This document shows, piece by piece, positions 12,962 through 64,000 of a stretch of 64,000 bases of DNA. The stretch spans positions 32,001-96,000 of IMG/VR virus record IMGVR_UViG_2654587994_000003; one strand, 5' to 3'. Source of the DNA: a virus (Duplodnaviria; Caudoviricetes). Within the stretch, counting starts at the first letter, position 1; each line of letters begins with the position of its first letter. A program made the translations under genes and the position numbers. Below the pieces are notes generated by a model that saw only the letters and a program-made list of their open reading frames with translations, was not told the DNA's origin and ran no database searches.

Positions 12962-13218
12962 AAATCCTCCGAATAGAGCTGGGGGCCATTGGTGGCCGAT
13001 TTGATTTGGCCTGCCGCATGCGCGAGATAGAATGCCTCAACGCGGTTCACGAAACGACCTCTATCTGTGATGAATCCTTGCGCCTGAGGCGTCGCCACCG
13101 CGCCATCTATGCTCATTTGGGTGTCCATCGTTTGGATGATGGTGTGATGTCTGGCAGGCGGCGGGAGCGAAATCGTTGCGCCGAACTGGATTGCCGCGGC
13201 GGCTATACGCTCTAGCAT
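12955..13218 (-). CDS. Conserved phage hypothetical protein
   Basis: RHH...QGFITDRGRFVNR.EA...A..AGQ...LYSEDLW, a pattern recalled from phage hypotheticals. Confidence 0.7.
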   Translation of the reverse strand: MLERIAAAAIQFGATISLPPPARHHTIIQTMDTQMSIDGAVATPQAQGFITDRGRFVNRVEAFYLAHAAGQIKSATNGPQLYSEDLW

Positions 13219-13445
13219 TTGTCTGCCTCAGCGAGCGCTTCAAATATTACTTCTTCGTTCAAGTAATTCTCTCGCGCCAGACTTGCGAAATCCACTTCAG
13301 CAGGGCAGTGAACGATCGCCGCTGCAATGGCCTCCCTCGACCGCTGGAGGTATCGAAGTCGCTCTGCTCTTGGCATCCCCATCCACGACCTCTTATCAAA
13401 AGAGGAGTCCGATTTTGCCATCGCTGCAATGACCTTAGCTAACAT
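13212..13445 (-). CDS. Hypothetical phage protein
   Basis: Tightly overlapping operon member. Confidence 0.55.
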   Translation of the reverse strand: MLAKVIAAMAKSDSSFDKRSWMGMPRAERLRYLQRSREAIAAAIVHCPAEVDFASLARENYLNEEVIFEALAEADKC

Positions 13446-13723
13446 ACCGTCTCCTTAATCCTCTTCTTGCCTTCGACATTCGGCTTCACCACCGGCTTAA
13501 ACCGGCGCAGCGCGAACGGTGGATCCTCATCGCCGAACTGCGGACACACGCCACGGTTCACGCCCGCCAGCCTGATGCCGGCGTAATCTCCACCGAGATA
13601 CGTGCGGCACATGCCCACCCACGTCGCCGTGTAGATCTCCCCGGCACGAATGCCGGGGTATTGCTCAGGAAGGGTGGTGTCGTCGACGCAGACGACTTCG
13701 TCGCCGGGTTTGATCGCATTCAA
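13439..13723 (-). CDS. Hypothetical phage protein (SH3-like)
   Basis: KPGDEVVCVDD...G.IYT...F...RF.P pattern; coupled operon member. Confidence 0.6.
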   Translation of the reverse strand: MNAIKPGDEVVCVDDTTLPEQYPGIRAGEIYTATWVGMCRTYLGGDYAGIRLAGVNRGVCPQFGDEDPPFALRRFKPVVKPNVEGKKRIKETVC

Positions 13724-13920
13724 GAGACGGCCTCCTCCCGCGTCATTTCACCAAGGTAGCTCACTGCGATTGGGCACGCGTCGGCGCCTCCCAAAACAGC
13801 ATTCCGCGCTTCTCGAATCCGCCCCTCGTTCACGTATTTGTCGGGCCACCCCATCGTGACGCGCGCAAACGTTCCATTCGCTGCCGCGTAGCTGAACATG
13901 AAATAATGGAGCTTCTTCAA
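13720..13920 (-). CDS. Hypothetical phage protein
   Basis: 4-bp start/stop overlaps on both sides. Confidence 0.55.
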   Translation of the reverse strand: MKKLHYFMFSYAAANGTFARVTMGWPDKYVNEGRIREARNAVLGGADACPIAVSYLGEMTREEAVS

Positions 13921-14648
13921 GCCGCCCTCCCCGCCATCAACGCATCAAACGTCGCCAGGAACTCAAGCTCCGCCTCCTCCGGCGACCAGTACCGCAGCTT
14001 CACGCCCAGCTCTTTCCCGGCGTACCGCGCATGCCACGGCATCTCCCGCAGGTTGACCAGCTCGTCGGCGATGATGCTGTTGTCGGCGTCGTGAACCTCG
14101 CGCGGCAACTCCTTCGGCAAACCAAACCGCGCCGCGATAGCCAGCCAGTTGTCTTGCTCGATCGCACGGTAGTTCGTCAGGTACGGCTTGAGTGGGCGCG
14201 GAATGTCCACGCAGTATGCTTCAGGGGCATCGTGCAGAAGGCCAGCCAAAGCCACCTCCGGCGCGTGCTTGGCTGCAAGGTGACGGGCAATCAGAACTGA
14301 ATGTTCGGCGACGCTGTAGAACTTGATGCAGTGCCCTGCGTAGCGGCATTGCAGGCCGAGCGAATGCGCGATGTCTTCGATGTAGACTTCGTGCGGGCGC
14401 GGCGACATCGGCCAATATTTGCGACCGGTGAAGGTTTGCATGAAATCGCCGGCGCGGGGTGGTTCGGCTGGTGTGTTGCGGGTTAGGCCGATGTATTGTC
14501 CGTTGTCCTGGGACTGAGGACGGTTGTCGTTGGCGGCAACTGGGGTACACCTTGTGCGCTCTTCGCGCAGCGCCATTGCAGCCTTAAAGGTGGCGATCTT
14601 TTTATCTGCGATCTCTCTCGCGTCTATCACTGCAGCGTATGGCATCAA
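13917..14648 (-). CDS. HD-domain phosphohydrolase (YfbR/YfdR-like 5'-deoxynucleotidase)
   Basis: IEDIAHSL...CRY.GH...FYSVAEHS, LLHDA.EAY..DIP.PLK motifs. Confidence 0.88.
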   Translation of the reverse strand: MMPYAAVIDAREIADKKIATFKAAMALREERTRCTPVAANDNRPQSQDNGQYIGLTRNTPAEPPRAGDFMQTFTGRKYWPMSPRPHEVYIEDIAHSLGLQCRYAGHCIKFYSVAEHSVLIARHLAAKHAPEVALAGLLHDAPEAYCVDIPRPLKPYLTNYRAIEQDNWLAIAARFGLPKELPREVHDADNSIIADELVNLREMPWHARYAGKELGVKLRYWSPEEAELEFLATFDALMAGRAA

Positions 14649-15073
14649 AACGCCTTCCCACCAGCCATAAGCCGGTTTTCGATTTTGTGGTCAGGGCGGT
14701 TGGCGTTGAATGCCATCTTCTCGACGGCGGCGCCGCCGAGGTCATAGCCAAGGAACGCAGCCAGATCGCCGATCCGAATCATTGCGTCAGCAAGCTCCAC
14801 CTCAGCCATAGGTCGGTGCGGCAGCTTGTCGTCCATCAGCACTTTACCGGGCTTGGACTTGCGATAGCCCTCCATCGCTTCGCTGATCTCGCTGTGAATC
14901 AGGCAAAGCATCTCAGGCACGTTGCGGTCCAGCGCCCTGCCTGTGGCGAGGTCAGTGTACCAGCCTGCTCTACGGCTTGCTGCGTGGCAGTCGGCTGCAA
15001 ACAGGTTGATCGCTGCGGCGTGGTGGAATTCCACCTCCGCAGCAATTTTTAAAGTCACGACGTTGTCACTCAT
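14645..15073 (-). CDS. MazG-like NTP pyrophosphohydrolase
   Basis: LIHSEISEAMEG.RK...EVELADA.IRI.DL ExxE motifs. Confidence 0.8.
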   Translation of the reverse strand: MSDNVVTLKIAAEVEFHHAAAINLFAADCHAASRRAGWYTDLATGRALDRNVPEMLCLIHSEISEAMEGYRKSKPGKVLMDDKLPHRPMAEVELADAMIRIGDLAAFLGYDLGGAAVEKMAFNANRPDHKIENRLMAGGKAF

Positions 15074-15279
15074 TCTTGTCTCCTCAGTGGCGGTGGTTGA
15101 CCGCCAGTTGGTAGCTGGCGGCTGGTTGGGGATTGCTGGGGAAGTCGCTGTATAAATGCTAAAAAAACCCGAATTTGCCGGTTGTTTCGGTGGTTATCCC
15201 CCATTGGCAATTGACCTTCGGCCCGTAGGGAGTCCTTATTGCCATTGTGGTGCCAGCGAATCTTTCACTGGAGCACCAA

Positions 15280-15429
15280 ATGAAGACCTTCCTTAAGTTC
15301 AGGCACGGTAAAACCGAAGGTGAAGCGAACAACACTCTCGGAATGTTGCTGCTTACGATCATTGCCGTAACCTACAGGCTTGCGCCGTTCATCGCGCTGG
15401 GCGCTGGCGGATACTGGTATGTTCGCTAG
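15280..15429 (+). CDS. Small 49-aa membrane protein (antisense moron)
   Basis: SD GGAG, hydrophobic C-terminal half; opposite strand to flanking operon. Confidence 0.5.
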   Translation: MKTFLKFRHGKTEGEANNTLGMLLLTIIAVTYRLAPFIALGAGGYWYVR

Positions 15430-15433
15430 GGCG

Positions 15434-16687
15434 TCACGCCACCGCCCTCGCCGGCTCATTGTCATTGGCCGCCGCATATCGCCCCGCGACCATCTCCGGA
15501 CGCAACGTGGCGCGGGCAACTTCGCCGAAGCGGCGAGAATACGTGATAACTTTGGCAGACCGGCCCGACAGCCATCCGCCGCCAGCAGCGTATGCGTCAG
15601 GCGCGGCAAGCGTTTCGTGGCGCTCGACATACATCAGCGCCGACTTGCGGCCCTCATCGCTGTGCAGGTGCCCGACATGCGCGAAGGCGTACTTCGATGC
15701 GCCGAACATTTCGCGGAACATGCCTGCCAACGTCGCATCGACCTGGGCCACGCCACGCTTATGGCCGTGGTGATAGAACAGCGCTGTGTCGCCCCACTTG
15801 TAGGCGTAATAAAGCATAGGGCTGGTATCGACCGACACGCGCGGCTCGTTCTCGTAGATCGTCGCCAACAGCTCGCGAACCCATACGGACGAGGCCGGGT
15901 CATGGTTGCCCGAAGCCATGACGACGTGAACGTGCTTGTGCTTTTGCAACAGCATATCAACGACGCGACGCAGAGTGCGAATAACGACGCGGACCACCTT
16001 ATGCAGGCGGGAATCGGCGTCGAGAACGTGCTTATGCGCAGGCGTCACGCTCTCAAGAGCGTCATGGTGCAAGAGGTCGCCGAGCTGCGCGAGAACAGCT
16101 GTGTGCGCCTGCGGAGCGCCAGCCACAGCGGCGGCAAACCAATCCAGCAGCAACTGTTCGGCCAGCCTTAGATCGTAGTCGGCGCCCGTTTCCTCGCGAT
16201 GGGCCAGCATGCCAAAATGGCTGTCGGTCACAACGAACTGGTTGAGGAGGTCTTCTTCGATGTGCTGCGGCGCAGGCATTATCGTGATGCGAGGCAGATT
16301 TTCCTTGAGGCCGTCGACAACGGCGCGGAACGCGGCCAACTGCCCTTCGGCATCCACCGCCGTCTTCTGCCACTGCTGGATAACGCGCCCCTCAGCATCA
16401 ACGAGGGCAGACACACCTTTGACGACGTGGCCAGTCGGCACCGCGAACTTCTCGCCCCGTTCCGGCGTCTGCTGGATGAACGTGCCGCTCGGAGTGTTGC
16501 TGATACGGCTTATGCGAAAGCCAGGAAGGACAGGCTCCGTGCCAAGAAGGCCAGCTTCGGCGGCGCGTTTGATGCTCTCGGCAAGAGCGGACTTGCCGAT
16601 GCCAAGCACGGCGGCAGCCTTCACGAGCGTGCCGTGCTCTTTGTAGGCATCGGCTCTCCGGCGTAGTTCTTCTATGGGTAGAGGCAT
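15434..16687 (-). CDS. Calcineurin-like metallophosphoesterase with N-terminal HTH
   Basis: D.H.G, GD..H.D, GNHD, HHGH, GHLH motifs; start at MPLPIEE after GAGGAG. Confidence 0.8.
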   Translation of the reverse strand: MPLPIEELRRRADAYKEHGTLVKAAAVLGIGKSALAESIKRAAEAGLLGTEPVLPGFRISRISNTPSGTFIQQTPERGEKFAVPTGHVVKGVSALVDAEGRVIQQWQKTAVDAEGQLAAFRAVVDGLKENLPRITIMPAPQHIEEDLLNQFVVTDSHFGMLAHREETGADYDLRLAEQLLLDWFAAAVAGAPQAHTAVLAQLGDLLHHDALESVTPAHKHVLDADSRLHKVVRVVIRTLRRVVDMLLQKHKHVHVVMASGNHDPASSVWVRELLATIYENEPRVSVDTSPMLYYAYKWGDTALFYHHGHKRGVAQVDATLAGMFREMFGASKYAFAHVGHLHSDEGRKSALMYVERHETLAAPDAYAAGGGWLSGRSAKVITYSRRFGEVARATLRPEMVAGRYAAANDNEPARAVA

Positions 16688-16739
16688 GCAGTCTCCTCGA
16701 TGTGGTGGTGAAGGCCGCTTGGTGGGCGGCCTGATTATT

Positions 16740-17405
16740 TTACTTACGCGCCAGCAACTCACAAACCGCAGTCGAAGGCACGACATAGCCATAGCCAACC
16801 AGCGAGCCTGAGAAGCCAATAGGCGCAGCCATGACGCCAACAGTGATGCCGATCAGGTCGCCGTTGTCTGCGTAGACGGGTCCGCCTGACTGGCCCATCA
16901 CAGTTGTGATGTCTGTCACATAGACCGATTTCCAAGGACCTGTTTCGCGGGACTCGCCAGCGATCTTTCCGTATGCGGCAACGAATTCGATTTTCAGAGG
17001 ATTGCCGTAAGCAACGATAGGATCGCCAACATTCACAGCGTGGCAGGCCAGTTTTGCGACGCCGAGGCCGTCCGACGACGTACGCAGCAGTGCAATGTCA
17101 TTGGCTTTGTTGACCCAGAGGACATCAGCCTTGCGAAGAGCTCCGCCCTTCGCTTTCAACTGAACTTCCTTCGCGTCGCCGACGACGTGCGCAGCAGTGA
17201 CTATGAAGCCATCGCCGATATGAACGCCGGAGCCGTGGCCGTTTTCAAGCTGGATTTTAACGGTGGCTGTTTCTGTTGCTGCGGGTGTTGGTGGAGGAAG
17301 GAGCGCATAGGCGGCCGCAGATGTCGCGGCGATGACGAGGAATAAAGCAACGAGGAATGCTGTTGGCGTACGCCGCGACGCGGCATGCAGGAATCGTCTG
17401 AGCAT
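16740..17405 (-). CDS. Trypsin-like serine protease with N-terminal membrane anchor
   Basis: GSG, TAAHVV, DIALL, GQSGGP catalytic motifs. Confidence 0.9.
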   Translation of the reverse strand: MLRRFLHAASRRTPTAFLVALFLVIAATSAAAYALLPPPTPAATETATVKIQLENGHGSGVHIGDGFIVTAAHVVGDAKEVQLKAKGGALRKADVLWVNKANDIALLRTSSDGLGVAKLACHAVNVGDPIVAYGNPLKIEFVAAYGKIAGESRETGPWKSVYVTDITTVMGQSGGPVYADNGDLIGITVGVMAAPIGFSGSLVGYGYVVPSTAVCELLARK

Positions 17406-17485
17406 GATTATCCCCTCTTTCTGGCGACCGTGCGCCAATGTGGTGGTCTCGGTTGGTTGCCGAGCGGCTGGTGAGGCCGACAATC

Positions 17486-17517
17486 AAGCTATACTGTTTT
17501 TACAAATTTGTCAAGAT
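17486..17517 (-). promoter_or_regulatory. Sigma70 promoter with embedded palindrome (copy 1 of an exact 32-bp repeat)
   Basis: Minus strand TTGACA-N17-TAGCTT containing ACAAATTTGT; identical to 60018-60049. Confidence 0.8.
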
Positions 17518-17559
17518 TTGCGGCCGCCTCAGAATCCCGATTGACTCTTTAGAGCATGA

Positions 17560-17574
17560 GAACATAATAAGAAC
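17560..17574 (+). promoter_or_regulatory. Alphaproteobacterial LexA (SOS) box overlapping a promoter
   Basis: GAAC-ataataa-GAAC (GAAC-N7-GAAC) overlapping the -10 of TTGACT(17541)...CATAAT; upstream of the SRAP operon. Confidence 0.8.
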
Positions 17575-17604
17575 ATCATGTCTCACAAGATGCGAACACA
17601 AGCA

Positions 17605-17781
17605 ATGAAACAGTACAGATTTCGGGCTGGGCGCTGGATCGTAACAGTGCGCGCGCCGACCTTTGCCCACGCTAAAATAGCCGCCGCAGCAAAGCTGGAT
17701 CAACGGGCAGCGAAGCTTTTCGCTAGTCCGCCTGCATGCGGCTGGAAGCTTGAACGACTAGCAGACACCACCAGAGGATAG
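17605..17781 (+). CDS. Small hypothetical protein (SOS operon)
   Basis: First ORF after the LexA box; start uncertain (17578-17605). Confidence 0.5.
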   Translation: MKQYRFRAGRWIVTVRAPTFAHAKIAAAAKLDQRAAKLFASPPACGWKLERLADTTRG

Positions 17782-17785
17782 TCCT

Positions 17786-17986
17786 GTGCGCCCAAATTCA
17801 AGAGAACCGCAAGCTGATCCGGTTGACCACATCATTGCATGGCATGACGGCGATAGCCGCGCCGCGATTGAGACGCTGATGGAAGACATCCAGCACTTGC
17901 GGCTGCAGCTTGCGCTGGCGACCGCAGCGATGGGAACCGGCTTCACGAGAGGATGGAAGCCGGACGCCGACAGAAATGCCAGGTGA
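17786..17986 (+). CDS. Small conserved rhizobial hypothetical protein
   Basis: VD..IAWHDGD.RAAI.TL..D...LR.QL...GFTRGW pattern; SD GAGGA. Confidence 0.7.
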   Translation: MRPNSREPQADPVDHIIAWHDGDSRAAIETLMEDIQHLRLQLALATAAMGTGFTRGWKPDADRNAR

Positions 17987-18452
17987 AGGAGCTTATCTGC
18001 TTTCGGACTACGGCGGCGAGCCTGTCGGCGTTATATGTGAGGAATGCGAGCTCCTGAAATTCATTAGTTCGGCCGAGCTAATGGTCGAATTTGGCGACCT
18101 GTCGATGCCGACGATGCTGCGGCGCATTTCCCAAGAAGTGATCAAATGCGCTAGGCCGATGGAGGGCTTTTCAGGCCGCTGCATGCTTCATTACCACGCG
18201 CGCGCCGGCAGTCAGATCGATGCATTGAAACAAGCGACGCCGCCGGCCGTTAGAGTGAAGGAAATTCGAAACTGGGAGATTGTCGTTGCCAAGTGCAACT
18301 ACTGCGGCCACGTTTCAAATATCCCGCACTGGCAACTGAACCGCGCGGCGAAGACGGACACTACGGTGGACGAAATTGCCAAGCGACTGAAATGCAAACG
18401 ATGCAGCGTGAAGGGTGATGTGAAAATCACCATAGCCAAGATGCCGAGGTGA
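17976..18452 (+). CDS. Zn-ribbon protein (multiple CxxC)
   Basis: CEEC, CNYC, CKRC motifs; coupled within the operon. Confidence 0.65.
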
Positions 18453-18454
18453 GC

Positions 18455-19228: not shown

Positions 19229-19301
19229 CCGGCGGCCGCCGCCAGATGAATGCATGTCAATGAGGAGAGTAAGCCCACTATTCGGATAGAGGAGGAGGAA
19301 G

Positions 19302-19715
19302 ATGCATATTCGCCCCTACATTCTCGAAAATCACGGTGTCTACCCAAAGCGGTTTCTGGAAGATGGCGACTTCTTCGGAGTGCAAAAAGCCATTCACGAG
19401 GATCTGGACGCGCGGCTGATCGCTGAGGTGGATCGAGAATCCGACCTCACCGCCTATTCCGGATACGTCGCGATGGAACTGTGGGCCGATGACGACGACA
19501 TACCGACGGGCGCGAAGATCGAGATGTTGTTCAGTGAACGGAAAGGCATCGCCGCCGTCCTCTACGACCATCCGAAAATATCCGATGCTTTCATTGAGTG
19601 GGTGTTTTGCAACTCGCCCAACGACGCATTGACCAAATGGAAGAAGAAAGTTCGTTGGCCGCTGATGGAAACATCACGGGGGCCGGTCGACATAACCGGA
19701 GAGGCCCAACAATGA
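19302..19715 (+). CDS. Hypothetical protein
   Basis: Strong SD GAGGAGGAGG. Confidence 0.6.
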   Translation: MHIRPYILENHGVYPKRFLEDGDFFGVQKAIHEDLDARLIAEVDRESDLTAYSGYVAMELWADDDDIPTGAKIEMLFSERKGIAAVLYDHPKISDAFIEWVFCNSPNDALTKWKKKVRWPLMETSRGPVDITGEAQQ

Positions 19716-19879: not shown

Positions 19880-19911
19880 CGAGCTGCTGCGCCAATCTCA
19901 ATCACTTTTAC

Positions 19912-19936: not shown

Positions 19937-19970
19937 CGTCAAATTACAGACGAGAACAGGGATTTAGGTA

Positions 19971-47735: not shown

Positions 47736-47812
<77 letters not shown>

Positions 47813-47944: not shown

Positions 47945-48889
47945 CTATGCTGCGCGGTCACGGAAACGGCTGAGTGCCAACTCTGCTAACCTTGCCTCGC
48001 GTTTATCGATCTCCTGCCACCTAATGCTCACAGTGCCTATTGCCATGCCAACCAATGCGCGACCAGCAACAGCTGGCTTCAAGACCTCACCCCTGCGCTT
48101 TCCTATTTCGGAGTAGCTCTGGCCGCCCAACACCGCATCCTCGAAAGGTTCGACCAGCGGTCCTAGTGACGACCGAAGCTCCGCCAGGATCGGTTTGGCG
48201 TCGATATATTCATTCAGGATTTCATCGGTGATCTTCACGTGTAAGCTTTCCGTCTTGATCACACTGCCTGAAGCCACGTTGTCGTTGGCTGCGACCACAG
48301 TCCTCCGTGGCGGTATCGAATGCGATCCCTTGCTCTTCTTGACCTTCGTAGAGATTTTGATCTCGCCACTCGGCATTTCCTTCCAGTCGGACGCGGCGGC
48401 TCGGTCAATGTCCGATTCTGGCGTAAGGCGTTTGGTTTCCCTGACCACCTCCCCTCCGTCAGCCTTGCTGTAGTCCAACCCTTTCAGCGGCTCAGCCTCA
48501 CAAAGCGCCACAAGCCGGCGATATCGAAGGACGACAGCTACAAGATCCTCACGCTCATCACGGCGAAGCGCCTCAAGCAACGGAAAGTCCTCGCCGCGGC
48601 TCTGAACACAAGAGGGATCACCAATCGACTGCCGCTTCACTATCGCCCTCCGAACCTTCGCCATTTTCCTCGCCTCGTCAGCCGCTTTGGCTTTTGCTCG
48701 TTCTCTGCCTGCCGCCCTCTCCTCTGCAGTCTGCGGGATTTTGAGAACGTCTCTTGTTTTGGTTTCCTCGATTGGCTCCCACTTTCCATCCACCTTACGG
48801 AAGCGAGTGTTGGTCCTGTATGGATGCGGCTGGTCGCCGGTGAAGGCTACCCTGCCAGTGGCGTCGATGATCTGGTCTTCCTCGTTCAT
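47945..48889 (-). CDS. Hypothetical protein, possible late-gene regulator
   Basis: C-terminal HTH-like 'G.SYSEIG'; position just upstream of tRNA/HNH/terS. Confidence 0.6.
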   Translation of the reverse strand: MNEEDQIIDATGRVAFTGDQPHPYRTNTRFRKVDGKWEPIEETKTRDVLKIPQTAEERAAGRERAKAKAADEARKMAKVRRAIVKRQSIGDPSCVQSRGEDFPLLEALRRDEREDLVAVVLRYRRLVALCEAEPLKGLDYSKADGGEVVRETKRLTPESDIDRAAASDWKEMPSGEIKISTKVKKSKGSHSIPPRRTVVAANDNVASGSVIKTESLHVKITDEILNEYIDAKPILAELRSSLGPLVEPFEDAVLGGQSYSEIGKRRGEVLKPAVAGRALVGMAIGTVSIRWQEIDKREARLAELALSRFRDRAA

Positions 48890-48926
48890 TGCTGTCTCCC
48901 CTGTGGTGCTCTTACTGCTGCTGCGC

Positions 48927-49400
48927 TTACGTTGGATGATTGTCGTTATCGGCCAGCCATCCTTTGACGAGTGCCACTGCCTTGTCGGCCGCTTCTGTCG
49001 TGGATGTGAACCGCACCACTTCCACTGGGTGCCCTAGCCGCGCCAGCGACGCATGCCGCTCAACCTGAGCCGGAGACAGGCGGCCTTTGCCGACTTTGTT
49101 CTCGATCATCCGCAGGGTGCCGCCCTTGAGGTAGATCCGCAGGTCAGCTTCTCCCGGCGTCATGCCAGTTGCGATTGCGTCAGCCTGGGCCCGTGGCCCG
49201 CGCTTCGCGCTGTTCATGTCGCCTGCCAGCAGGAACTGGCGGCCGTACTCCGGCAGCGACCGCAGGGCGCGAACCTGGGCCGCCTGCCCTTCACTTTCCT
49301 TGATGGGTGCGTCTGCGACAGTGACCTTGCCTTTTGGCGAAGTACGGATGACGACGCGCTTGCCATTGATGCGGGTGGTTTGGCTTGTGGCTCTGCCCAT
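48927..49400 (-). CDS. VRR-NUC domain nuclease
   Basis: E...Q, G...G.ADL, IENK...GRLS..Q...H..L..LG..V.V motifs; start at MGRATS. Confidence 0.85.
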   Translation of the reverse strand: MGRATSQTTRINGKRVVIRTSPKGKVTVADAPIKESEGQAAQVRALRSLPEYGRQFLLAGDMNSAKRGPRAQADAIATGMTPGEADLRIYLKGGTLRMIENKVGKGRLSPAQVERHASLARLGHPVEVVRFTSTTEAADKAVALVKGWLADNDNHPT

Positions 49401-49504
49401 GGGCGTCTCCTCGTGGTGCGGTGTCGTGGTGGCGACACACTTACTTTCCGAGAGACGAGCGAAAACGGGTAGTCGAATTTGAAAATATTTTTGGGTGAGC
49501 ATCA

Positions 49505-56124: not shown

Positions 56125-57179
56125 GCTGCCACCTTGGCAACAGCATGATTATCGTTGGCGGCAGAGAACAGATCGGCCACCGGCTGCTCTTTCGTGCCAA
56201 GCGACGCGATGTTCTTCACTGCCTGACGGAAGTATGAAGGCTTGAGCTCGAAGCCGACGCCCTTGCGGCCCATCTCGACGGCTGAATAAACCTCGCTGCC
56301 AATCCCGAGGAACGGCGTAAGCACTGTCTCACCGGGCAGGCTCCACAGATCAATGCAACGTTCGATCACGTCCAGCTGCAAAGGCGAGATATGCTGTTCG
56401 TCTTGCTCATCTCGGGCGGATCGGTATTGCAGTGTGCGTGTTTGGCGAATGTCGCTCCAAACCGGCGATGCGTATCGCTGCCAGACGAATACGGAGCGCC
56501 ACTGCTCGAAGCTCCAGGGCGTGCGACCATCGGCAATTGTTTCTGCGGCGTGACGGTCATAGGCCTCGCGGCTGATGTCGAGACTTTCGTCGCCCACCCA
56601 CATATCGAACATGCCATCGACCGGTTCAGAGTTTTCGCCCGGCTTTCGGAACGAGACGATGTAGTCGGCAAGCCCCTGCCCGCTGATGCAGCTGTCCTTC
56701 GTGATCTGCTTGTGCAGCAGGCGAATGGATTTGGTGCGCTGCTGGGCAACTACCGGGTCTTTCCAGATGCAGACTTCGGAATGAAAGATCCAGCCGGCGT
56801 CCTCATAAGCACGGATGATCTCACCGCGGAAATCGCGCATGCCGATAAAGCCGTTGCGTCTCTTGCTCGTCGGCAGCTGCATGCAGTGAACGCTATGAAT
56901 GCGTCCCGGTTTTGTGACGCGCAACAGTTCTTGGATAAGAAACGCGTAATGCTCCCAGAATGCGCCGCCCTCATTGTTGCTGATGTCGCGGTCAAAGCTC
57001 GAAAACTTGTAGAGGCCTTCGAACGGTGGAGAGTGGATGCCGAAATGCACGCTGTCACCAGGGATAGCGCGAATGAGCTCACACGAGTCACCTTCGTAAA
57101 TGGCGTAGTTGTCGGTGATGACCTGGTTCACGGCGTTGATGTCGGCGGTCAAGGCCGCAGTATTCTGTGCGTTCGTCAT
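56121..57179 (-). CDS. DNA methyltransferase (N4/N6, beta class)
   Basis: SPPF motif IV precedes H..PLQ and VLTPFLGIGS motif I. Confidence 0.92.
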   Translation of the reverse strand: MTNAQNTAALTADINAVNQVITDNYAIYEGDSCELIRAIPGDSVHFGIHSPPFEGLYKFSSFDRDISNNEGGAFWEHYAFLIQELLRVTKPGRIHSVHCMQLPTSKRRNGFIGMRDFRGEIIRAYEDAGWIFHSEVCIWKDPVVAQQRTKSIRLLHKQITKDSCISGQGLADYIVSFRKPGENSEPVDGMFDMWVGDESLDISREAYDRHAAETIADGRTPWSFEQWRSVFVWQRYASPVWSDIRQTRTLQYRSARDEQDEQHISPLQLDVIERCIDLWSLPGETVLTPFLGIGSEVYSAVEMGRKGVGFELKPSYFRQAVKNIASLGTKEQPVADLFSAANDNHAVAKVAA

Positions 57180-58588
57180 TATGCGGCACCTCCTAGCCAT
57201 GATGGGATTTGCATCGGGATTTTCGGGTCGTAGCTAGCCTTCTCACGCGCCTGCGCATTGATCGCCTGCTTGGTGATATTGGCTGTGTGGAGCACCATCG
57301 CTGCGGCCATGCGGTCGGCGTCGGCCTCCTTGCGCTTAAGGTTGGCAACCACAGCGCCTTCGGTCTCGGCGGCGATAAAGTGAGCTGTGACCTCTTTCTG
57401 CTGCCCAAACCGGTAGAAGCGGCGAACCGCCTGATGGATCTGCTCGAAGCTATCGTTGAGACCAACAAATCCAGTGTCTGCACAGTGCTGCCAGTTCATG
57501 CCGAAGCCAGCGATCGAGGGCTTGGTTACGAGCACGCGAATCCGGCCTTCGCTGAAGTCGATGAGCTTGCGCTCCTTCACATCCTCTTTATCCGAACCGC
57601 GCACTTCGACCGCGCCGGGGATGGCCTTGGTCAGAGCCTCGCTCTCGGCGTTGAGATTGCACCACCACACGAAAGGCCTGTCCTTCGGCGTCATCGCGGC
57701 AGCGAAGGCTACGCGATCATCCACACTGTCACGACGCGCCTTGATGCGCTCTTGGAGCGTCGATGCACGGCTGCCCACGAGATCACCGACAGCAACGGGA
57801 GCTGTCACCGTGTGGTGAATTTGATGCAGCGCCGGCAGCAAATAGGCGCCATCGTCGTATCCAAGATCGGAAGGCTTGCGAAGCATGACTGCCCACGACG
57901 CCATCCAGCGCCAGAAGTCGTTTTCGGCGTGACCTTTGAGCCGCCACTTCTGCGTTTCCCCGCCGTCGTGAGTAAAGAAGGTCGCTAGCATGTCGGAGTA
58001 GGACATGATGCCGAGAAATTCAGCGTGGTTGCCAAGCTCCATAAAATCGTTCGGTGCAGGCGTAGCAGTAGCAGCCAGCCGGAACGGTATGCCGTGGCAC
58101 GCCTCGACTAGCTCGTTGCGATAATGGCCAGTCTCGGATTTCAGAATGCTGCTCTCGTCGAGAATGACGCCAGAGAACTGCGACAGGTCGAAAGCATCAA
58201 TCTTCTGATAGTTCGTGACGTTAATGCCTGAGCCGATGTCTGACTGTGATCGCACGTGTCTGGCGGGGATGCCGAACTTCTCAGCCTCGCGCACCATCTG
58301 CGCCGCGACTGCCAGAGGCGCGAAATGTAGGACATCGCCCTGTGTCGACGCACTGACCGCCTGCCCCCACGCAAGCTCCATGAAGCTCTTGCCGAGGCCA
58401 GTGCCGGCGAAGAGCGCAGCGCGGCCACGCTTGAGAGCCCAGGTCACGATGTCGCGCTGGAACGGGAATAGCACCGATGGAAGATCTGGAATCTCGGTTA
58501 GACCCGTCGGCGGGTCTAGAATGGCTTTTCTAGCCAAGAACGCAGCATAGGCGTTCGCTTGCGCACTGAGCGCAACATTCATGTTCAT
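57179..58588 (-). CDS. SNF2-like helicase
   Basis: FQ...V.WA, GLGKS, LDESS, TATPAPND, GFGMNWQ, Q..RR.YRFGQ motifs. Confidence 0.9.
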   Translation of the reverse strand: MNMNVALSAQANAYAAFLARKAILDPPTGLTEIPDLPSVLFPFQRDIVTWALKRGRAALFAGTGLGKSFMELAWGQAVSASTQGDVLHFAPLAVAAQMVREAEKFGIPARHVRSQSDIGSGINVTNYQKIDAFDLSQFSGVILDESSILKSETGHYRNELVEACHGIPFRLAATATPAPNDFMELGNHAEFLGIMSYSDMLATFFTHDGGETQKWRLKGHAENDFWRWMASWAVMLRKPSDLGYDDGAYLLPALHQIHHTVTAPVAVGDLVGSRASTLQERIKARRDSVDDRVAFAAAMTPKDRPFVWWCNLNAESEALTKAIPGAVEVRGSDKEDVKERKLIDFSEGRIRVLVTKPSIAGFGMNWQHCADTGFVGLNDSFEQIHQAVRRFYRFGQQKEVTAHFIAAETEGAVVANLKRKEADADRMAAAMVLHTANITKQAINAQAREKASYDPKIPMQIPSWLGGAA

Positions 58589-58668
58589 ATTGTCTCCTCA
58601 GACTGTGGTGTTCCCGCCGAAGCGGAAGCCGCGTTGGTGGCGCGGCGGGTGATGTGGTAGTGTTGCCG

Positions 58669-59439
58669 ATGGGGAATCGGGGTCGGCAAGTGGTTGAAAA
58701 AATCAAACGTTATTGGTGGCTTGCTGCATGCCTGTGGGCACTTCTCGCCTTTGTGTCCTGGCACTTTGAGAGCACATGCGGGGTGTTTTTCTTCTCCGCG
58801 TGCCTCTCCGAGTATTGGGCAGGAATTCGGTGGATCGCCTTGCTCAAATGGGTTTCTCCCTATCAGGCACTACTAGCTGGCATTGCGGCTGTTGTCGGCG
58901 GATACTTTGTCCTCCTTTCCCAGCGGCTTCAGATCGATGAGGCGCGCCGCGTTGGCGTCGCATCGAAAGATGCCTCATTTCGCGCAGCTTTAGCGACTGT
59001 GCGTTCTGAATGCCTGCACGTCGCCGATCAGCTGGGCTCTGACGAGCTTCATACATCGACCAAGACCCTAGATTTCACACGCGCGTCATTTCCTATCTTC
59101 GCCGATCGAGATCCAAGGCTTCTTCATATAACTATGAGCGTGACCCACCGTCTTGAGAAAGCTCTAGAAGAGAAGAACAAGGGACGGGAATCTGCTTTCT
59201 CACAAACAAAACTTTTGTGGTACTCAAGCATTGGAATGGCTTTTGCAGAACTCCTGATACAAGTCAGCGAGAAGTTGAACGCAAACGAGGACGCCAGCGT
59301 CAGCTACGCGTCTTTCGATGGCCACCGACTCTACAGTTTCCTAGAAAGGAGAGGCCAAACCCCGAGCGTTTTGTTTGAACTCGGGGCATATTTTAGTTGG
59401 CCGGTGGAGCAACATATGGAGGATGAGTGGCGCCCATAG
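58669..59439 (+). CDS. Membrane-anchored hypothetical protein (moron)
   Basis: N-terminal TM helices (YQ.L.AG..A..GG); antisense; start uncertain. Confidence 0.6.
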   Translation: MGNRGRQVVEKIKRYWWLAACLWALLAFVSWHFESTCGVFFFSACLSEYWAGIRWIALLKWVSPYQALLAGIAAVVGGYFVLLSQRLQIDEARRVGVASKDASFRAALATVRSECLHVADQLGSDELHTSTKTLDFTRASFPIFADRDPRLLHITMSVTHRLEKALEEKNKGRESAFSQTKLLWYSSIGMAFAELLIQVSEKLNANEDASVSYASFDGHRLYSFLERRGQTPSVLFELGAYFSWPVEQHMEDEWRP

Positions 59440-59442
59440 CCA

Positions 59443-59970
59443 TCACGCCACCCTCACCGACAGCTGCTCACCCGCCTCGCCCATCTTTGCGCCGCGCACC
59501 TTCTTGCCAGCCTGCAACGCCTCCTTGATGGCGGTCTTGTCGGGCGATGTCGAAACGCGCACGTAAGCCTTTGGCAACGCGGCTTCGTCGATGATCTCAA
59601 CCGATGCAGCCTTCTTGCCGATGGATATCGTCGCCTCGGCCAGCGGCACGCGCGGCACGCCGGCAGCCTTCAGCAATTTTAACATCAGGCTTCGCATGGC
59701 CTCCTTGCGTCGCTCTGCGCGCGACTTGCGCGCTTGCAGATCGGAAATGCGGAGCGCAACTGACTTTGCCAGGCTGTCGGCGTCGCGCTCGCCGTTGACG
59801 AGGCGCGTCAGGACGGCGTGGAAGTTGGTCTCTCCTTCCAGCATGTCTGCGCGCAGTTCTTCGTCTGTCTCAAGCTCCGGATAAGCGGCCAGCATGTCGG
59901 CGAAAAGCGCTTCGAGGTTGGCGACGTCGGCGGCCAAATAGTTGTCGTTGGCGGATCTTCTCTCGCTCAT
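59443..59970 (-). CDS. Siphovirus Gp157 family protein
   Basis: D.LEGET, S.EI.DE..LP..Y.....PDK.AIK.AL..G..V.GA motifs. Confidence 0.88.
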   Translation of the reverse strand: MSERRSANDNYLAADVANLEALFADMLAAYPELETDEELRADMLEGETNFHAVLTRLVNGERDADSLAKSVALRISDLQARKSRAERRKEAMRSLMLKLLKAAGVPRVPLAEATISIGKKAASVEIIDEAALPKAYVRVSTSPDKTAIKEALQAGKKVRGAKMGEAGEQLSVRVA

Positions 59971-60017
59971 TTGTGTCTCCTCAATGTGGTGACGCCATTG
60001 GTGTGGCGTAGAGTTTG

Positions 60018-60049
60018 AAGCTATACTGTTTTTACAAATTTGTCAAGAT
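60018..60049 (-). promoter_or_regulatory. Sigma70 promoter with embedded palindrome (copy 2)
   Basis: Exact match to 17486-17517. Confidence 0.8.
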
Positions 60050-60136
60050 ATAACATTGAATGCAGTTTTTGTGATTGCGCGAAGTTGAAACCACCCACAA
60101 CTTTTCCTACGTATTTTGTGTAATCAACTACAGGAG

Positions 60137-60592
60137 ATGAAATTGGGGCTTCGGGACAATCTGAAAAACATTATCGACGATCAACAGAGAGCGGCGGATG
60201 AGGCGGCAGAGCGAGCAAAGCGCGAAGCCGCAATCGCTCGGGCTAAATCTCTCGACACGGCAATAAAGTCTTTTTGCCGTCTCCTGGATGAAGGCACGGT
60301 GCAGGAGATCATTGAACATCACATTAAGAGCATCCGTGGGATGCGGGTAGTAGTACTCGGGTGTTCCCGTGACCGAGCTGTGATCTACTTAGATCCGGAA
60401 AGCAATGTTCCTCGTCAGTTCCCGCTAGACATCGAATTCAATGCTGACCCATTTGTCATGAATGAAGCTATCGAATCCGTGGAGGTCCAAGCCGCGATTG
60501 AAGCTCTGAAGAAGGAGGGTGTGATTGTGACAGCCGGACGAGAGCAAGGAAATGGCGCAATCCGCGTGACGCTTGACTACAGGAATATCTAA
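60137..60592 (+). CDS. Hypothetical protein (moron)
   Basis: SD AGGAG; own terminator GGCGGGGC-aga-GCCCCGCC-TTT at 60600. Confidence 0.65.
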   Translation: MKLGLRDNLKNIIDDQQRAADEAAERAKREAAIARAKSLDTAIKSFCRLLDEGTVQEIIEHHIKSIRGMRVVVLGCSRDRAVIYLDPESNVPRQFPLDIEFNADPFVMNEAIESVEVQAAIEALKKEGVIVTAGREQGNGAIRVTLDYRNI

Positions 60593-60624
60593 AATCGTCG
60601 GCGGGGCAGAGCCCCGCCTTTCCC

Positions 60625-62379
60625 CTAAAATGGCACGTCATCGTCCATCAACACCCGCCAATCCTCTTCTTCCGGCGCGTTGTCATTCGCCGGCGACACG
60701 CGATTATCATTGGCCGCTCCAACCACGTGACCCACGACATCCCAGTATTTCTGGCGCGGCTTCACCGTGATCTCCACCGTGTCGGCCAGCTCTGACTGAC
60801 GCTCAATCCACTCCAGAACCGTCTTGGGAAACGGCATCTTGCCGCCATGCGCGCGCCAGTAACGGTCGGCCTTTGACTTCGGGAATCCGCTATGTTGCGG
60901 GCAAACCCACTCGTTGATCGCCGTCATGCCGACCATGTAGCTGACCTTCACCGACGGCGGCTTATCGCCCTTCCCTTCGTGGTAGTAGAAGCTACGCGAA
61001 GTGACGGTGCGGGGTTCTGGTTCTGCCGTCGACATGATCGGCGTATCAGCAGCCGTCGCCGTAATCTTAGGGCTGTCATCGATATCGAACTCATAGCCGC
61101 AGCAAGAGCACGTGCGCGCTGAGGCATGCACCTTCTCGCCACAGCCGAAGCGACCATTCTTGTCCTCGACGTCGAACGGGCAGACCTTCACTGGCGCTTC
61201 CCCGTCGCCCTTGTTGGGCGTCTTTGGCTGCACCATGTCGACCGGTCCGTGCTTGTCGACGAGACCGGCGAAGTCCAGCACAAGGCACGAGGGTTTCGGA
61301 CCAGCCTTAATCGCGGCAATGCGCCCCTGAGGCGTGTCGAGAGGCATGCCAGGCGCGTATATCACGCGAGTGCCGCGGCCCATCATCTGCACGTACAGCG
61401 AAACTGACAACGTTGGCCGAAGGGCAGCAATCAGGTCGACACCCTTGTGATTAAATCCGGTGGTCAGAACCGAGTTGTTTGTCAGCGCGCGGATCTTGTA
61501 GGACTTGAAGTCCTCGATAATGCGACGGCGCTCATCCTTCGGTGTTTCGCCGCTAATCATCTCGCAGGAGATGCCGCGTGAACGAATCTCGTCACGCACA
61601 TGCTCGGCGTGCTCGACGCCGGAGCAGAAGCAAAGCCATGACTTGCGGTCGGCGCCCTTTGCGACGATCTCATCGACGGCGGAACGCGTGACGTCCATCT
61701 TGTCCACGGCAGCCTGCAGCGCGGACTGCTTGTAGTCGCCGCCCTGCCTTCCGACGCCCTTCATGTCGAAGGTCGTGGCAGTGGCCTTGGACGAAAGCGG
61801 CGCGAGATAGCCGTCAGCAACGCCGTCGGCGATGCCATAGGTGTAGACGATCTGGTCGAACAGCCGATCGTCGCCCTCATCCAATCGGCCTGTATCCAGC
61901 CGGTAAGGCGTGGCGGTGAGGCCTAGGATTTTCATGTCGGGATTGATGGCACGCAGGGCCGCGATGAAGCGACCGTACATCGTGTTGCTGTTGGCGGGGA
62001 TCAGATGGCACTCGTCCACCATCAGCACGTCGATGTGCCCGATGAGCGCAGCTTTGCTGTGCACGGTCTGAATGCCGGCGAAGATGATCTGGCTGCGCGC
62101 GTCACGACGGCCAAGGCCGGCCGAGAAGATCCCCGCCGGAGCAAATGGCCAAATGCCGAGCAGCTCAAGGTAATTCTGCTCGATTAGCTCAGCGACATGG
62201 GTGGCGACAAGGATGCGCATGTCCGGCCAGCCTTCAACCAGCCTCTTGATGAGCGAAGCCATGAGCAGCGACTTGCCGCAGCCGGTGGCAAGGTCGACGA
62301 GCGGATTGCCGGCCGTCGTTGACCAATAGTCGAAAACGGCGTTTTCTGCTTCTTCTTGGTAGTGGCGCAGTTGGAGCAT
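60625..62379 (-). CDS. DEAD/DEAH SF2 helicase (RadD/YejH-like) with Zn finger
   Basis: LR.YQ, TGCGKS, DECH, TATP, LTTGF, QM.GRG.R motifs. Confidence 0.92.
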   Translation of the reverse strand: MLQLRHYQEEAENAVFDYWSTTAGNPLVDLATGCGKSLLMASLIKRLVEGWPDMRILVATHVAELIEQNYLELLGIWPFAPAGIFSAGLGRRDARSQIIFAGIQTVHSKAALIGHIDVLMVDECHLIPANSNTMYGRFIAALRAINPDMKILGLTATPYRLDTGRLDEGDDRLFDQIVYTYGIADGVADGYLAPLSSKATATTFDMKGVGRQGGDYKQSALQAAVDKMDVTRSAVDEIVAKGADRKSWLCFCSGVEHAEHVRDEIRSRGISCEMISGETPKDERRRIIEDFKSYKIRALTNNSVLTTGFNHKGVDLIAALRPTLSVSLYVQMMGRGTRVIYAPGMPLDTPQGRIAAIKAGPKPSCLVLDFAGLVDKHGPVDMVQPKTPNKGDGEAPVKVCPFDVEDKNGRFGCGEKVHASARTCSCCGYEFDIDDSPKITATAADTPIMSTAEPEPRTVTSRSFYYHEGKGDKPPSVKVSYMVGMTAINEWVCPQHSGFPKSKADRYWRAHGGKMPFPKTVLEWIERQSELADTVEITVKPRQKYWDVVGHVVGAANDNRVSPANDNAPEEEDWRVLMDDDVPF

Positions 62380-62930
62380 ACGAAATTCCAGACCTTGAGA
62401 TAAACGATTGGATTGCAGGGTTATCTGCGCTCGCCGCTATGCTCGCGGCTGCTTTTGCTTTCTCGTCGGCCCGCCAAGCCAAAAGACAAGCGGACGCGGT
62501 TCTCGGAGACGTAGAGCCTGTATTCAGCGCCTATCAGCTACCAGACGATGGGAAAAACTATCGCCACAGGGTCGCCATCGAGATAGTCAACCACAATCGG
62601 CTACCGCTCTATGTCCAAAGCATCAGGTTGGAGTACCCTGACTGGGTGCTTATTCACCGTGGAGCGGAAGAGGTTCGCGATCTTGTTGCCGCACTTTACG
62701 ACGTAGTCATCGAGAAAAAGCGTGAGCACGTATTTGACGTTCCTTTCCGTCTCGCTGGGCGCTTCTCGAGTGATATGCCTGCAGTATCCACAAGCGTTTT
62801 CAATGTGAGATTTCTCGACCAGAACCAGCAGGGCGGTTTTGTACTAGGCTTCATCGTCCATTATCGCATGCATGGATCGAAGCGGGTTCGAGTTGCGTTT
62901 GCCTCGACAGGATTCGACGTTTTGGACTAA
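62319..62930 (+). CDS. Membrane-anchored hypothetical protein (moron), start uncertain
   Basis: W...LSALAA..AA..A..SA..A.RQA pattern; antisense between the sigma-like and helicase genes. Confidence 0.55.
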   Translation: MTNSRKRRFLLLLGSGAVGAYEIPDLEINDWIAGLSALAAMLAAAFAFSSARQAKRQADAVLGDVEPVFSAYQLPDDGKNYRHRVAIEIVNHNRLPLYVQSIRLEYPDWVLIHRGAEEVRDLVAALYDVVIEKKREHVFDVPFRLAGRFSSDMPAVSTSVFNVRFLDQNQQGGFVLGFIVHYRMHGSKRVRVAFASTGFDVLD

Positions 62931-63463
62931 CCAGCCTCCCGCAGCAGCCCAAGCACCCTCGCCCGCTCCTTGATGACGATCTGGCGAACGCGCTCTTTGG
63001 TGAGGCCGTGGTCATTGCCGATGGCCTCCAGCGTCTCGCCCATCGCCCTGCGCATCAGCATCGTGCCATTCCGGCCTTCCAGCAGGGAGACAACGCGCGA
63101 TAAGTCGGTGCCCTCCTCCTGGTGCGGATCAGCAGAACCCGGCAGCTCTTCGAACGCGGAGAGACTGCAGACCTCAGCGGACCGCGACTTGGTGGAATTT
63201 GTGCGAACGAATTCCTGCGCCGTACCCCGAACACAGAGGACGGCCCATGTCCAAAAGGTCTCAAGCCGGCATTCCCGATGACGGCGCAACATGACGACCA
63301 TCGCCGACTGAAAAAGTTCGTCGGCCGCGTCTTCGTTCTTGGTGATCTTTCGCGCCAGTCTTCGTAAAGCCGGCTCGTAGGCCAGAAGCTTGCGGTCGAA
63401 CTCGGGACTGCGCAGATTGTTATCATTGGCAGCGACAAGCGGCGTGCGTGCAACAAGCGGCAT
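62927..63463 (-). CDS. ECF-like sigma factor / HTH transcriptional regulator
   Basis: L.R.A..IT.N.D.ADEL.Q (region 2), GETLE.IG...GLTKERVRQI (region 4). Confidence 0.8.
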   Translation of the reverse strand: MPLVARTPLVAANDNNLRSPEFDRKLLAYEPALRRLARKITKNEDAADELFQSAMVVMLRRHRECRLETFWTWAVLCVRGTAQEFVRTNSTKSRSAEVCSLSAFEELPGSADPHQEEGTDLSRVVSLLEGRNGTMLMRRAMGETLEAIGNDHGLTKERVRQIVIKERARVLGLLREAG

Positions 63464-63483
63464 GGTGGTCTCCTCATAAGGTG

Positions 63484-64000
63484 TTAGGCGTTGGTGGCGC
63501 CATCTATCCATGTCGTGCCGTCTCGCAGCACATAAGTGATTGTCTCAGCTTCCTCATCGCAATCCGTTTGCGTGCCGGGGACGAGGGCCGGGATCGTCAG
63601 ATGCGTGGGGCAGCCTTCCTTTTGCTCGTCGAATGAAATCGGCTTTGCCCAGCGTGCGCAGGACCAATGACCGCCGCCGCCCATTTCCGGCGACGAGTGA
63701 ATGCAGGATCGACAGGTGACGCGTGGCCATGCACTCTCCTTGCATACAGGCTTGTGCTTGCAGAAGGTGCATTCGAACCAGTCCGGCGCATCGTTGATGC
63801 GCGACGGGGGCTCTGGCGAATTGATGATCCGTTCTAGCCGCGCCAGCAGACGCAGACAGAACTCCGGATCGTATTCGATGCGCTCGGCATAAAGCGTGTC
63901 ATCATCCTTGCAGCTGACGAGGTAGAGGCAGCGCGATAGACCGAACGCGTGCATTCCAAGCTGGCACTGTCCGTAGTGGAGCGGTTTCGCTTCCTTGCAG
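63484..64000 (-). CDS. PD-(D/E)xK Cas4-like exonuclease (5' end beyond window)
   Basis: H..QCQ..MH, FECTFC.HK..C, CRSC.H, W.C..W Cys-rich C-terminus. Confidence 0.75.
   Translation of the reverse strand, partial: CKEAKPLHYGQCQLGMHAFGLSRCLYLVSCKDDDTLYAERIEYDPEFCLRLLARLERIINSPEPPSRINDAPDWFECTFCKHKPVCKESAWPRVTCRSCIHSSPEMGGGGHWSCARWAKPISFDEQKEGCPTHLTIPALVPGTQTDCDEEAETITYVLRDGTTWIDGATNA

Follow-up and report, generated by a model that had tools for sequence, protein, structure and literature searches.

Leader hairpins with a conserved ACCA loop in an Agrobacterium prophage and a small RNA as their candidate partner

In an Agrobacterium prophage, early genes are preceded by hairpins with unrelated stems and a nearly constant loop containing ACCA, and a putative small RNA encoded beside the repressor-like gene carries loops and an internal segment complementary to these leaders. 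The DNA analyzed (the window) is a stretch of 64,000 nucleotides (nt), bases 32001–96000 of a 108,556-base provirus record (IMG/VR record IMGVR_UViG_2654587994_000003). The prophage, of ~64 kb, extends from about window position 12,000 to the record end; coordinates with the prefix L208 are bases counted beyond the window end. The hairpin family is real, loop-specific, and phage-borne, and an RNA is a likelier partner for it than a protein. Behind the hairpins lie genes of the early type (pyrophosphatase, DNA repair exonuclease, protease-like, two helicases, Mu Gam-like end protection, and sigma factor), and those beyond the window end include a sliding clamp, a DUF669 protein, and an AAA_24 ATPase.

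Leader hairpins with a fixed loop and changing stems

The original prediction, made from the sequence alone, listed eight such hairpins and raised the question of whether they are as frequent in shuffled or host DNA. They are not. In the phage part, the strict loop on a stem of at least 4 base pairs (bp) occurs 11 times on the minus strand and 3 times on the plus strand, against a mean of 0.49 (maximum 3) in 200 dinucleotide shuffles, and in the host sample (465 kb of chromosome from two Agrobacterium genomes) none of the 157 CNACCAA heptamers has paired arms. All eight listed sequences are present on the minus strand where they had been placed, and seven of them belong to the family. The eighth, GGCCA-CCAA-TGGCC at 12984–12997 (−), is rejected: its 5-bp stem closes a CCAA tetraloop, and it lies within the upstream open reading frame (ORF) and has no CACCAC tract. 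The seven members have perfect stems of 4–7 bp and loops of 6–7 nt with ACCA (in the minimum-energy fold of the leader or by direct pairing), and their 3′ ends lie 20–42 nt from the start codon, within the ~45 nt first given. With one more in the window and five beyond its end, this phage has 13 family hairpins, every stem being different. None of the 13 is followed by a U run, a feature already pointed out for the listed members, and the tails are C/A-rich, unlike those of intrinsic terminators.

Among 11 related phage genomes surveyed for the loop, 82 hairpins with an ACCA loop are followed by a Shine–Dalgarno (SD) sequence and a start codon, 62 of them with 7-nt loops. The loop is CNACCAA in 41 of these 62 (CCACCAA 24, CUACCAA 7, CAACCAA 5, CGACCAA 5), and the second loop type is CUCACCA. 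The same 62 hairpins have 46 distinct stems; the conserved part is the loop. Stem lengths across the surveyed hairpins range from 4 to 10 bp. CNACCAA heptamers have arms of at least 4 bp in 45 of 481 cases and of at least 5 bp in 36, vs. 0.51% and 0.16% of all positions. One-letter variants with arms stay near background (CNACCAC 4/545, CNACCAG 3/502, CNACCAT 2/364, and ANACCAA 6/322), and so does the reversed motif (3/466). When all 7-nt loops on stems of 5 bp or more are ranked without bias, CCACCAA leads (21 occurrences), followed by the variants at the second loop position (N2), with 5 each.

The pairing of the flanks is also apparent in 85 distinct CNACCAA heptamers chosen solely by their position 8–50 nt upstream of an SD and start codon. 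At stem positions 1–6, the flanks pair in 73, 74, 68, 73, 61, and 51% of them, vs. mostly 20–45% for a slid partner. In orthologous leaders of the exonuclease gene, the loop is kept on different stems (AGGCCGC, AAGGCCGA, UGCGGG, GCCG, CCCGC, and others), and the description of stems that differ yet still pair around a conserved loop holds even at this level. The alignment of these orthologous leaders is itself unclear, since one of the phage clades (clade B, see below) has the heptamer also in the single-stranded tract, and it is superseded by the flank-pairing test.

A second survey, on the co-occurrence of hairpins and small RNA, covers 21 related phage genomes; there, 67 of 75 hairpins have an SD and a start codon within 60 nt on the same strand. 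The rare hairpins on the other DNA strand precede genes of that strand, and in every case the next gene has the loop on its sense strand. This orientation, which follows the strand of the downstream gene, indicates a function at the RNA level, and the hairpins deserve the name of phage-wide RNA element that they had been given.

The leaders have a common order: the hairpin, a G/U-poor CACCAC(A) tract ~15 nt further on and, in this phage, a uniform extended SD, GAGGAGAC. The combination CACCAC-N0-8-GAGGAG is found 88 times in the phage DNA (687 kb) vs. 0 times in the host sample (465 kb). In the 11 related genomes, the 3′ end of the hairpin is 12–56 nt (mostly 24–30 nt) from the start codon. 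The ACCA of the loop is separated from the ACCA of the tract by a median of 15 nt (interquartile range, IQR, 13–17), and the loop is located ~26 nt upstream of the SD (IQR 23–30). Stem length and offset are negatively correlated (Spearman −0.33, p = 0.003), longer stems going with shorter offsets, so that the total distance between loop and tract is held. Among leaders with any ACCA in the last 20 nt before the SD, at least two ACCA are found in 22 of 81 with a hairpin vs. 62 of 124 without (Fisher p = 0.0014). The tail of hairpin leaders has mostly one ACCA (59/94), and hairpin-free motif leaders have at least two within the last 30 nt in 83 of 133 cases. Each leader, with or without a hairpin, seems to carry two ACCA sites.

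A candidate small RNA beside the repressor-like gene

Beyond the window end, directly 3′ of the gene for a 200-aa repressor-like protein (phrog_4, E = 4e-8), lies a predicted small RNA of ~140 nt (L208:7075–7213, +). The locus has, in order, a TTGACA-type promoter, a hairpin with the loop UGUGGUG (loop 1), the anti-SD segment GUCUCCUC, and a terminator with an inner hairpin of loop GGUGGUG (loop 3), then U's. The anti-SD is left unpaired in the predicted fold. Both sides change in 14 of 22 pairs (a value reached in 0 of 500 shuffles), and 88% of the alignment cells are paired vs. 42–50% with the partner slid. The covariance model (R1) finds the small RNA in 16 of the 21 related phage genomes at E ≤ 5e-7, and a 17th, weak match is a clear copy on reading. 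In five host genomes there is exactly one copy per genome, always within the prophage. A pattern search blind to the loops yields 32 distinct stretches, one unrelated chance match and 31 homologs; in all 31, loop 1 is UGUGGUG and loop 3 is [GA]GUGGUG, on covarying stems. The locus has no Rfam match at E of 1 or better, and a strict-filter search of 151 genomes of the host's order retrieves the small RNA in the starting genome only. Judged by its covariation, the small RNA is a real structured gene.

Exact complements occur between the small RNA and the leaders, UGUGGUG with CACCACA and GUCUCCUC with GAGGAGAC. For the commonest leader loop, CCACCAA, 6 contiguous bases are complementary to loop 1 and its closing G, which is reached by 0.34% of all heptamers; CUCACCA has 5 such bases (reached by 1.9% of heptamers), and the other N2 variants have only the 4-base core. 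In our own reading, the ACCA of the leader loop and the UGGU of the small-RNA loop both occupy positions 3–6 of 7-nt loops, with a purine next. In anticodon-like loop–loop complexes, a 3′ purine stacks on the short helix, a geometry that the ACCA and UGGU loops would share. The putative targets are scattered across ~58 kb of prophage DNA, and their strand is the opposite of that of the small RNA. Of 75 hairpins with CNACCAA or CUCACCA loops, 73 belong to the 17 genomes with the small RNA and 2 to the 4 genomes without it, and neither of these 2 has an SD behind it.

The comparison of sequences between phage clades has shown that the anti-SD flank of the small RNA and the leader consensus covary. 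In clade A, the leader GAGGAGAC faces GUCUCCUC (the GGAGAC complement) of the small RNA and, in clade B, the leader ACACGAGGAG faces CUCCUCGUGU. Within clade B, AACACG leaders face GUGUU and CACACG leaders face GUGUG (A/C vs. U/G between subclades). The base before the tract ACCA is C in 157 of 232 cases; in clade B, with GGUGGUA in loop 1 and not UGUGGUG, it is U in 20 and A in 38 of 100 (U vs. other bases, Fisher p = 7e-5).

In the proposed mechanism, the leader would consist of three modules (the ACCA-loop hairpin at the 5′ side, the single-stranded CACCAC-type tract, and the extended SD) before early genes of replication, recombination, and nucleotide metabolism, and the small RNA would offer three matching parts, the loops UGUGGUG and GGUGGUG and the exposed GUCUCCUC. 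The leader loop and one small-RNA loop would form a kissing contact of 4–6 bp, the leader tract would pair with the other small-RNA loop, and the anti-SD would cover the ribosome-binding site. A single small RNA could in this way shut off the translation of a dozen or more genes. The simplest combination would oppose two UGGU loops and an anti-SD to two ACCA sites and an SD. In our estimate, there is nearly an even chance that the leaders are translational operators with three contact points, one of them a kissing contact between the small RNA and the ACCA shown by the hairpin loop. That one prophage small RNA reads a three-point address (kissing loops in the same register, a tract–loop helix, and an anti-SD/SD helix) and silences or times a dozen to two dozen genes is proposed tentatively, as a possibility somewhat below even. 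We infer the contact at the loop itself, repression as the direction, and the timing of small-RNA synthesis. Among the three roles offered by the original prediction, that of translational operator fits best.

Several points weigh against this mechanism. From the sequences, the consensus of the leader loop is not the best complement of the small-RNA loops. Any base is allowed at loop position 2 (C 36, U 12, A 9, G 5 of 62), so that ~40% of the loops are left with only 4 bp; the terminal loop A is kept in 50 of 62 although it faces a G; and CNACCAC, a better complement of the small RNA, is not enriched (with a stem in 4 of 545, as given above). The shift of the leader loop between clades is weak (p = 0.04–0.09), and the small-RNA loops are invariant in the 31 homologs, which puts the loop–loop contact beyond the reach of a covariation test. 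One genome, G020, has the small RNA, no CNACCAA hairpin, and 4 CUCACCA hairpins, a pattern that makes the hairpin an optional part of the leader. The related genomes share ancestry, and counts across them, those of leaders included, are non-independent. Gene coordinates and starts come from a simple custom caller based on ORF, codon usage, and SD, which is a weakness. Contigs from four public runs labeled RNA-seq reach 143 kb, and their depth is flat (63–79) over genes and gaps; these runs resemble genomic DNA and are uninformative on transcription. Duplex folding of the whole small RNA with whole leaders was dropped, the result being long meaningless duplexes with a median of −56 kcal/mol for all 100 leaders.

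Alternatively, the loop could be the binding site of a phage or host protein, a translational repressor or activator at each leader, with the action of the small RNA confined to the tract and the SD. Coat-protein or ThrRS-type operators would then be the models. We hold this to be unlikely. Variable stems, a fixed loop, a free N2, and a conserved terminal A left without a pairing partner in the small RNA have the classic look of an element recognized by a protein, and a loop ~26 nt upstream of the SD stands at the edge of the ribosome footprint. A 70-aa Arg-rich protein (L208:9530–9742, +), with the N terminus MSRRRD and the segment WHERRKDARNRV, resembles by eye an arginine-rich motif, but it lacks a family match and is detected by tblastn in 2 of the 10 relatives. 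A tblastn survey of all phage proteins against ten relatives, which could miss proteins that are small and evolve fast, shows no non-core protein shared by every hairpin-bearing genome yet absent from G009; Pfam and PHROGs searches with 30 proteins give no RNA-binding domain. A host protein is hard to reconcile with 0 of 157 motif hairpins in host DNA. The element had first been taken for a protein-binding site; across the relatives, however, no RNA-binding protein follows the hairpins, while the small RNA with complementary loops does.

A purely cis-acting module, in which the hairpin insulates the ribosome-binding site against structure upstream and protects RNA ends (the 5′ ends of primary transcripts and the 3′ or 5′ ends left by processing) and the G/U-free loop and tract act as an unpaired C/A-rich enhancer of translation, is improbable as well. 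5′-Terminal stem–loops stabilize bacterial mRNA, and the three promoter-proximal hairpins (3/13) are placed at the transcript 5′ end by promoter prediction; other hairpins lie no more than a few nucleotides from the upstream stop codon. In enterobacteria, ACA and C/A-rich elements beside the SD enhance translation (PMC3879156). On the other hand, insulation or end protection needs no fixed loop, yet one-letter loop variants are at background and the loop is kept through the turnover of stems. The element is also absent from host genes and from related phages without the small RNA. A partner in 16S rRNA was considered for the motif; that the 465 kb of host DNA lack it speaks against an enhancer acting on ribosomes in general.

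It is very unlikely that the hairpins are boxB-like nut sites, where an N-type protein bound to the nascent RNA loop would render RNA polymerase resistant to terminators, as had also been suggested at first. The short GC stem with a conserved loop would suit such sites, three copies are promoter-proximal, and the small Arg-rich protein is encoded in an operon ending in the integrase gene. However, the 13 copies occur one per gene at positions set relative to the SD, only 3 of them follow a promoter, and no shared motif is seen by eye 5′ of the hairpins; the loop is a 7-nt loop of C and A only, not a GNRA-like pentaloop, and no N-like protein appears to be conserved, the candidate being found by tblastn in 2 of 10 relatives that have hairpins. 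Strongly disfavored and scarcely credible are a chance pattern and a signal at the DNA level, such as a cruciform or a hairpin of single-stranded DNA serving in priming, packaging, or recombination: the arms are perfect inverted repeats in DNA and the plus-strand loop TTGGTGG resembles Chi-like G/T-rich words, but the hairpins are far above shuffles, in 67 of 75 cases an SD and a start codon come next on the same strand, no more than 60 nt away, and the few on the other strand precede genes of that strand.

Individual leaders, early promoters, and the prophage record

The pyrophosphatase-like gene (14645–15073, PHROGs phrog_5658) has the hairpin CCGCCAG-CUACCAA-CUGGCGG (15101–15121, −) 27 nt before its ATG, and the C/A tract AACCACCGCCAC with the SD GAGGAGAC occupies 15074–15100 (−). 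The DNA repair exonuclease gene (15434–16687, phrog_704) is preceded at 24 nt from its ATG by AGGCCGC-CCACCAA-GCGGCCU (16712–16732, −), which begins 7 nt past the end of the upstream gene 16740–17405; the tract UCACCACCACAUC and the SD GAGGAGAC follow (16688–16711, −). That upstream gene (protease-like, phrog_9683) has two hairpins in tandem. The first, CUCGG-CAACCAA-CCGAG (17448–17464, −), 42 nt before the ATG, is followed by ACCACCACA; the second, CGGC-CUCACCA-GCCG (17465–17479, −), absent from the earlier list, starts 6 nt after the promoter −10, at the expected 5′ end of the transcript.

At the gene 48927–49400 (phrog_824, with a weak endonuclease match), GUGUCG-CCACCA-CGACAC (49421–49438, −) has a 6-nt loop and lies 20 nt before the ATG, with the tract CGCACCAC and the SD GAGGAGAC in 49401–49420 (−). 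The neighboring gene 47945–48889 is an example of a hairpin-free leader, with the tract GCACCACAGG and GGAGAC (48890–48926, −). For the DNA helicase gene (57179–58588), GCCGCG-CCACCAA-CGCGGC (58628–58646, −) is 39 nt before the ATG; the leader (58589–58627, −) continues with a hairpin of UUCG loop, UUCCGC-UUCG-GCGGGAA, the tract ACACCACAG, and the SD GAGGAGAC. This UUCG tetraloop hairpin (58606–58624, −) sits between the family hairpin and the tract, and a similar one is found at the same place in the relative G004.

The Mu Gam-like gene (59443–59970) has ACGCCA-CACCAA-UGGCGU (59992–60009, −), also with a 6-nt loop, 21 nt before the ATG and 8 nt after a promoter −10; its tract CACCACAUU and SD GAGGAGAC are in 59971–59991 (−). 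The last hairpin of the window, GGCG-CCACCAA-CGCC (63487–63501, −), lies 23 nt before the ATG of the sigma-factor-like gene (62927–63463) and overlaps the upstream ORF at its end; it is followed by UAACACCUUAU and the SD GAGGAGAC (63464–63486, −), with ACCACC between SD and AUG. The five hairpins beyond the window end are at the window-equivalent positions 65536–65560, 66427–66451, 68768–68790, 70341–70360, and 71334–71352.

Three hairpins start 6–12 nt after the −10 of three near-identical promoters with the palindrome ACAAATTTGT, and the remaining ones are operon-internal, often a few nucleotides after the upstream stop codon. The first of these early promoters is sigma-70-like, TTGACA-N17-TAGCTT (17486–17514, −); the pattern search gives 60018–60046 (−) as the second copy of TTGACAAATTTGTAAAAACAGTATAGCTT, and the third is at L208:6372–6400. 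In all three, the palindrome ACAAATTTGT directly follows the −35. Besides these 3 on the minus strand, the same search finds 1 in another register, in the small-RNA promoter (L208:7048–7075). The palindrome is probably the operator of the repressor, in which case the repressor would act also on the synthesis of the small RNA.

A further hairpin stands right after the repressor stop codon (L208:7024–7038). The repressors of the relatives are 96–99% identical, yet the stem and loop of this hairpin vary; read on the opposite strand, several of its forms have family-type loops, and a longer indel form is also present. With its plus-strand loop GUGGUGG it was considered as a partner of the leader loops and rejected: it occurs only in the closest relatives and its loop varies (GTGGTGG, TTGGTGG, TTGGTTG, TTGGTAA, CTGGTAA, and others). 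A similar word in G010, TTGGTAG, is part of the small-RNA promoter, in its −10 region. A separate UUGGU "anti-loop" RNA was likewise rejected, the intergenic TTGGT words of this phage being complements of leader hairpins or unstructured.

Relatives of the exonuclease gene are found in prophages of Agrobacterium (94% identity), Rhizobium, Sinorhizobium, Brucella/Ochrobactrum, and others, and also in 69 viral contigs. By megablast, 20 kb of the window have only partial matches among deposited phages, with Sinorhizobium phage NV1.1.1 at the top (74% over 15% of the query). Several early proteins (including L208:5968–6318, 9530–9742, and 10761–11030) share a peptide A/P-A-N-D-N, some twice; in the 116-aa first early protein it occurs as AANDNNP and AAANDNAE.

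Upstream of the prophage, bases 1–32000 of the record and 1–12000 of the window seem to hold a second block of structural phage genes, unrelated to it and on the plus strand, and two tRNA genes (10883–10956, −, and 11575–11648, +) are near the junction between block and prophage. Another tRNA gene, inside the prophage between the packaging and early regions (47739–47812, −), has an 85% match to tRNA-Met genes of Komagataeibacter phages. An Rfam scan of the window returns three tRNAs and nothing else. Contigs of public runs end at L208:12237–12281 with a loose end resembling a tRNA gene, probably the attachment site at the integrase end.

Meaning and comparison with known systems

The timing of phage genes is usually explained by promoters, repressors, and antiterminators; here, early genes share an RNA signature that matches one small RNA adjacent to the repressor gene. 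If the proposed mechanism is correct, post-transcriptional control by one RNA through several contacts would be among the main levels at which lysogeny or the early-to-late switch is governed in a widespread group of prophages of Rhizobiaceae and Brucellaceae. The hairpins would represent the first case of dedicated kissing-loop operators dispersed as a family over a phage genome, and the leaders would constitute with the small RNA a defined, portable operator/regulator pair for alphaproteobacteria. Full-text literature searches gave no description of the leader-hairpin element, and it has no Rfam family.

Two likenesses to tRNA are not supported. The ACCA loop had been compared to a tRNA 3′ end; in the acceptor end or an RNase P minihelix, RCCA is directly 3′ of the stem, whereas the distance from the stem to the next ACCA is here 0–18 nt (0 in 5 of 76), without a fixed acceptor-like geometry. 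A mimic of the anticodon loop is rejected also, loop position 2 not being U. With boxB/N of lambda, the leaders share a short hairpin with specificity in the loop and not in the stem. The lambda boxB is a GNRA-like pentaloop on a 5-bp stem, while the loops here are 7-nt CNACCAA or CUCACCA on stems of 4–10 bp; and instead of one promoter-proximal site per early operon, as for nut, there are 13 hairpins, one per gene. In GcvB, as proposed for the small RNA described here, a G/U-rich region targets C/A-rich elements adjacent to the SD of many mRNAs, elements that are themselves enhancers of translation (PMC3879156). GcvB is an Hfq-dependent regulator of the host with single-stranded targets, and a hairpin-presented site like that of the phage leaders is not known to be part of its system.

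As a genome-wide signature associated with starts, the closest analog appears to be the SAS/ESAS motifs of Cluster K mycobacteriophages, which likewise are phage-specific, centered on the SD, placed before many non-structural genes, and absent from the host. Their function and partner ("either RNA or protein") are still open as of 2025 (PMC3203893, PMC12699233). The 13-bp SAS consensus at the SD is given there as GGGATAGGAGCCC (PMC3203893), a sequence unrelated to the leaders here (CACCAC..GAGGAGAC or ACACGAGGAG). The ESAS has conserved 17-bp imperfect inverted repeats with a variable spacer; here the arms vary (46 stems in 62 hairpins) and the loop is conserved. For the ESAS, the authors find little support for an mRNA hairpin (PMC3203893, PMC12699233). 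The phylum of the host differs too, and a candidate trans-acting RNA is identified here. The same logic might explain SAS/ESAS, and it offers a hypothesis for other start-associated repeats of phages.

In its working, the system may be closest to an antisense immunity RNA such as c4 of P1. As in P1/P7, a small RNA of the immunity region would block phage genes via short complementary segments. In c4 RNA, one complementary segment covers the ribosome-binding site and, correspondingly, the small RNA described here has loops complementary to target segments and a segment complementary to the ribosome-binding site, the hairpin loop itself contributing 4–6 bases. The c4 RNA has one target, in its own operon, whereas one RNA here faces a dozen or more leaders in trans, and hairpins with a fixed loop as targets are not known for c4. 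The small RNA is no member of the Rfam C4 family, with no Rfam match at E of 1 or better. In P1, full repression of ant needs the C4 antisense RNA, which has a binding site in the operon, as stated in PMC8198154.

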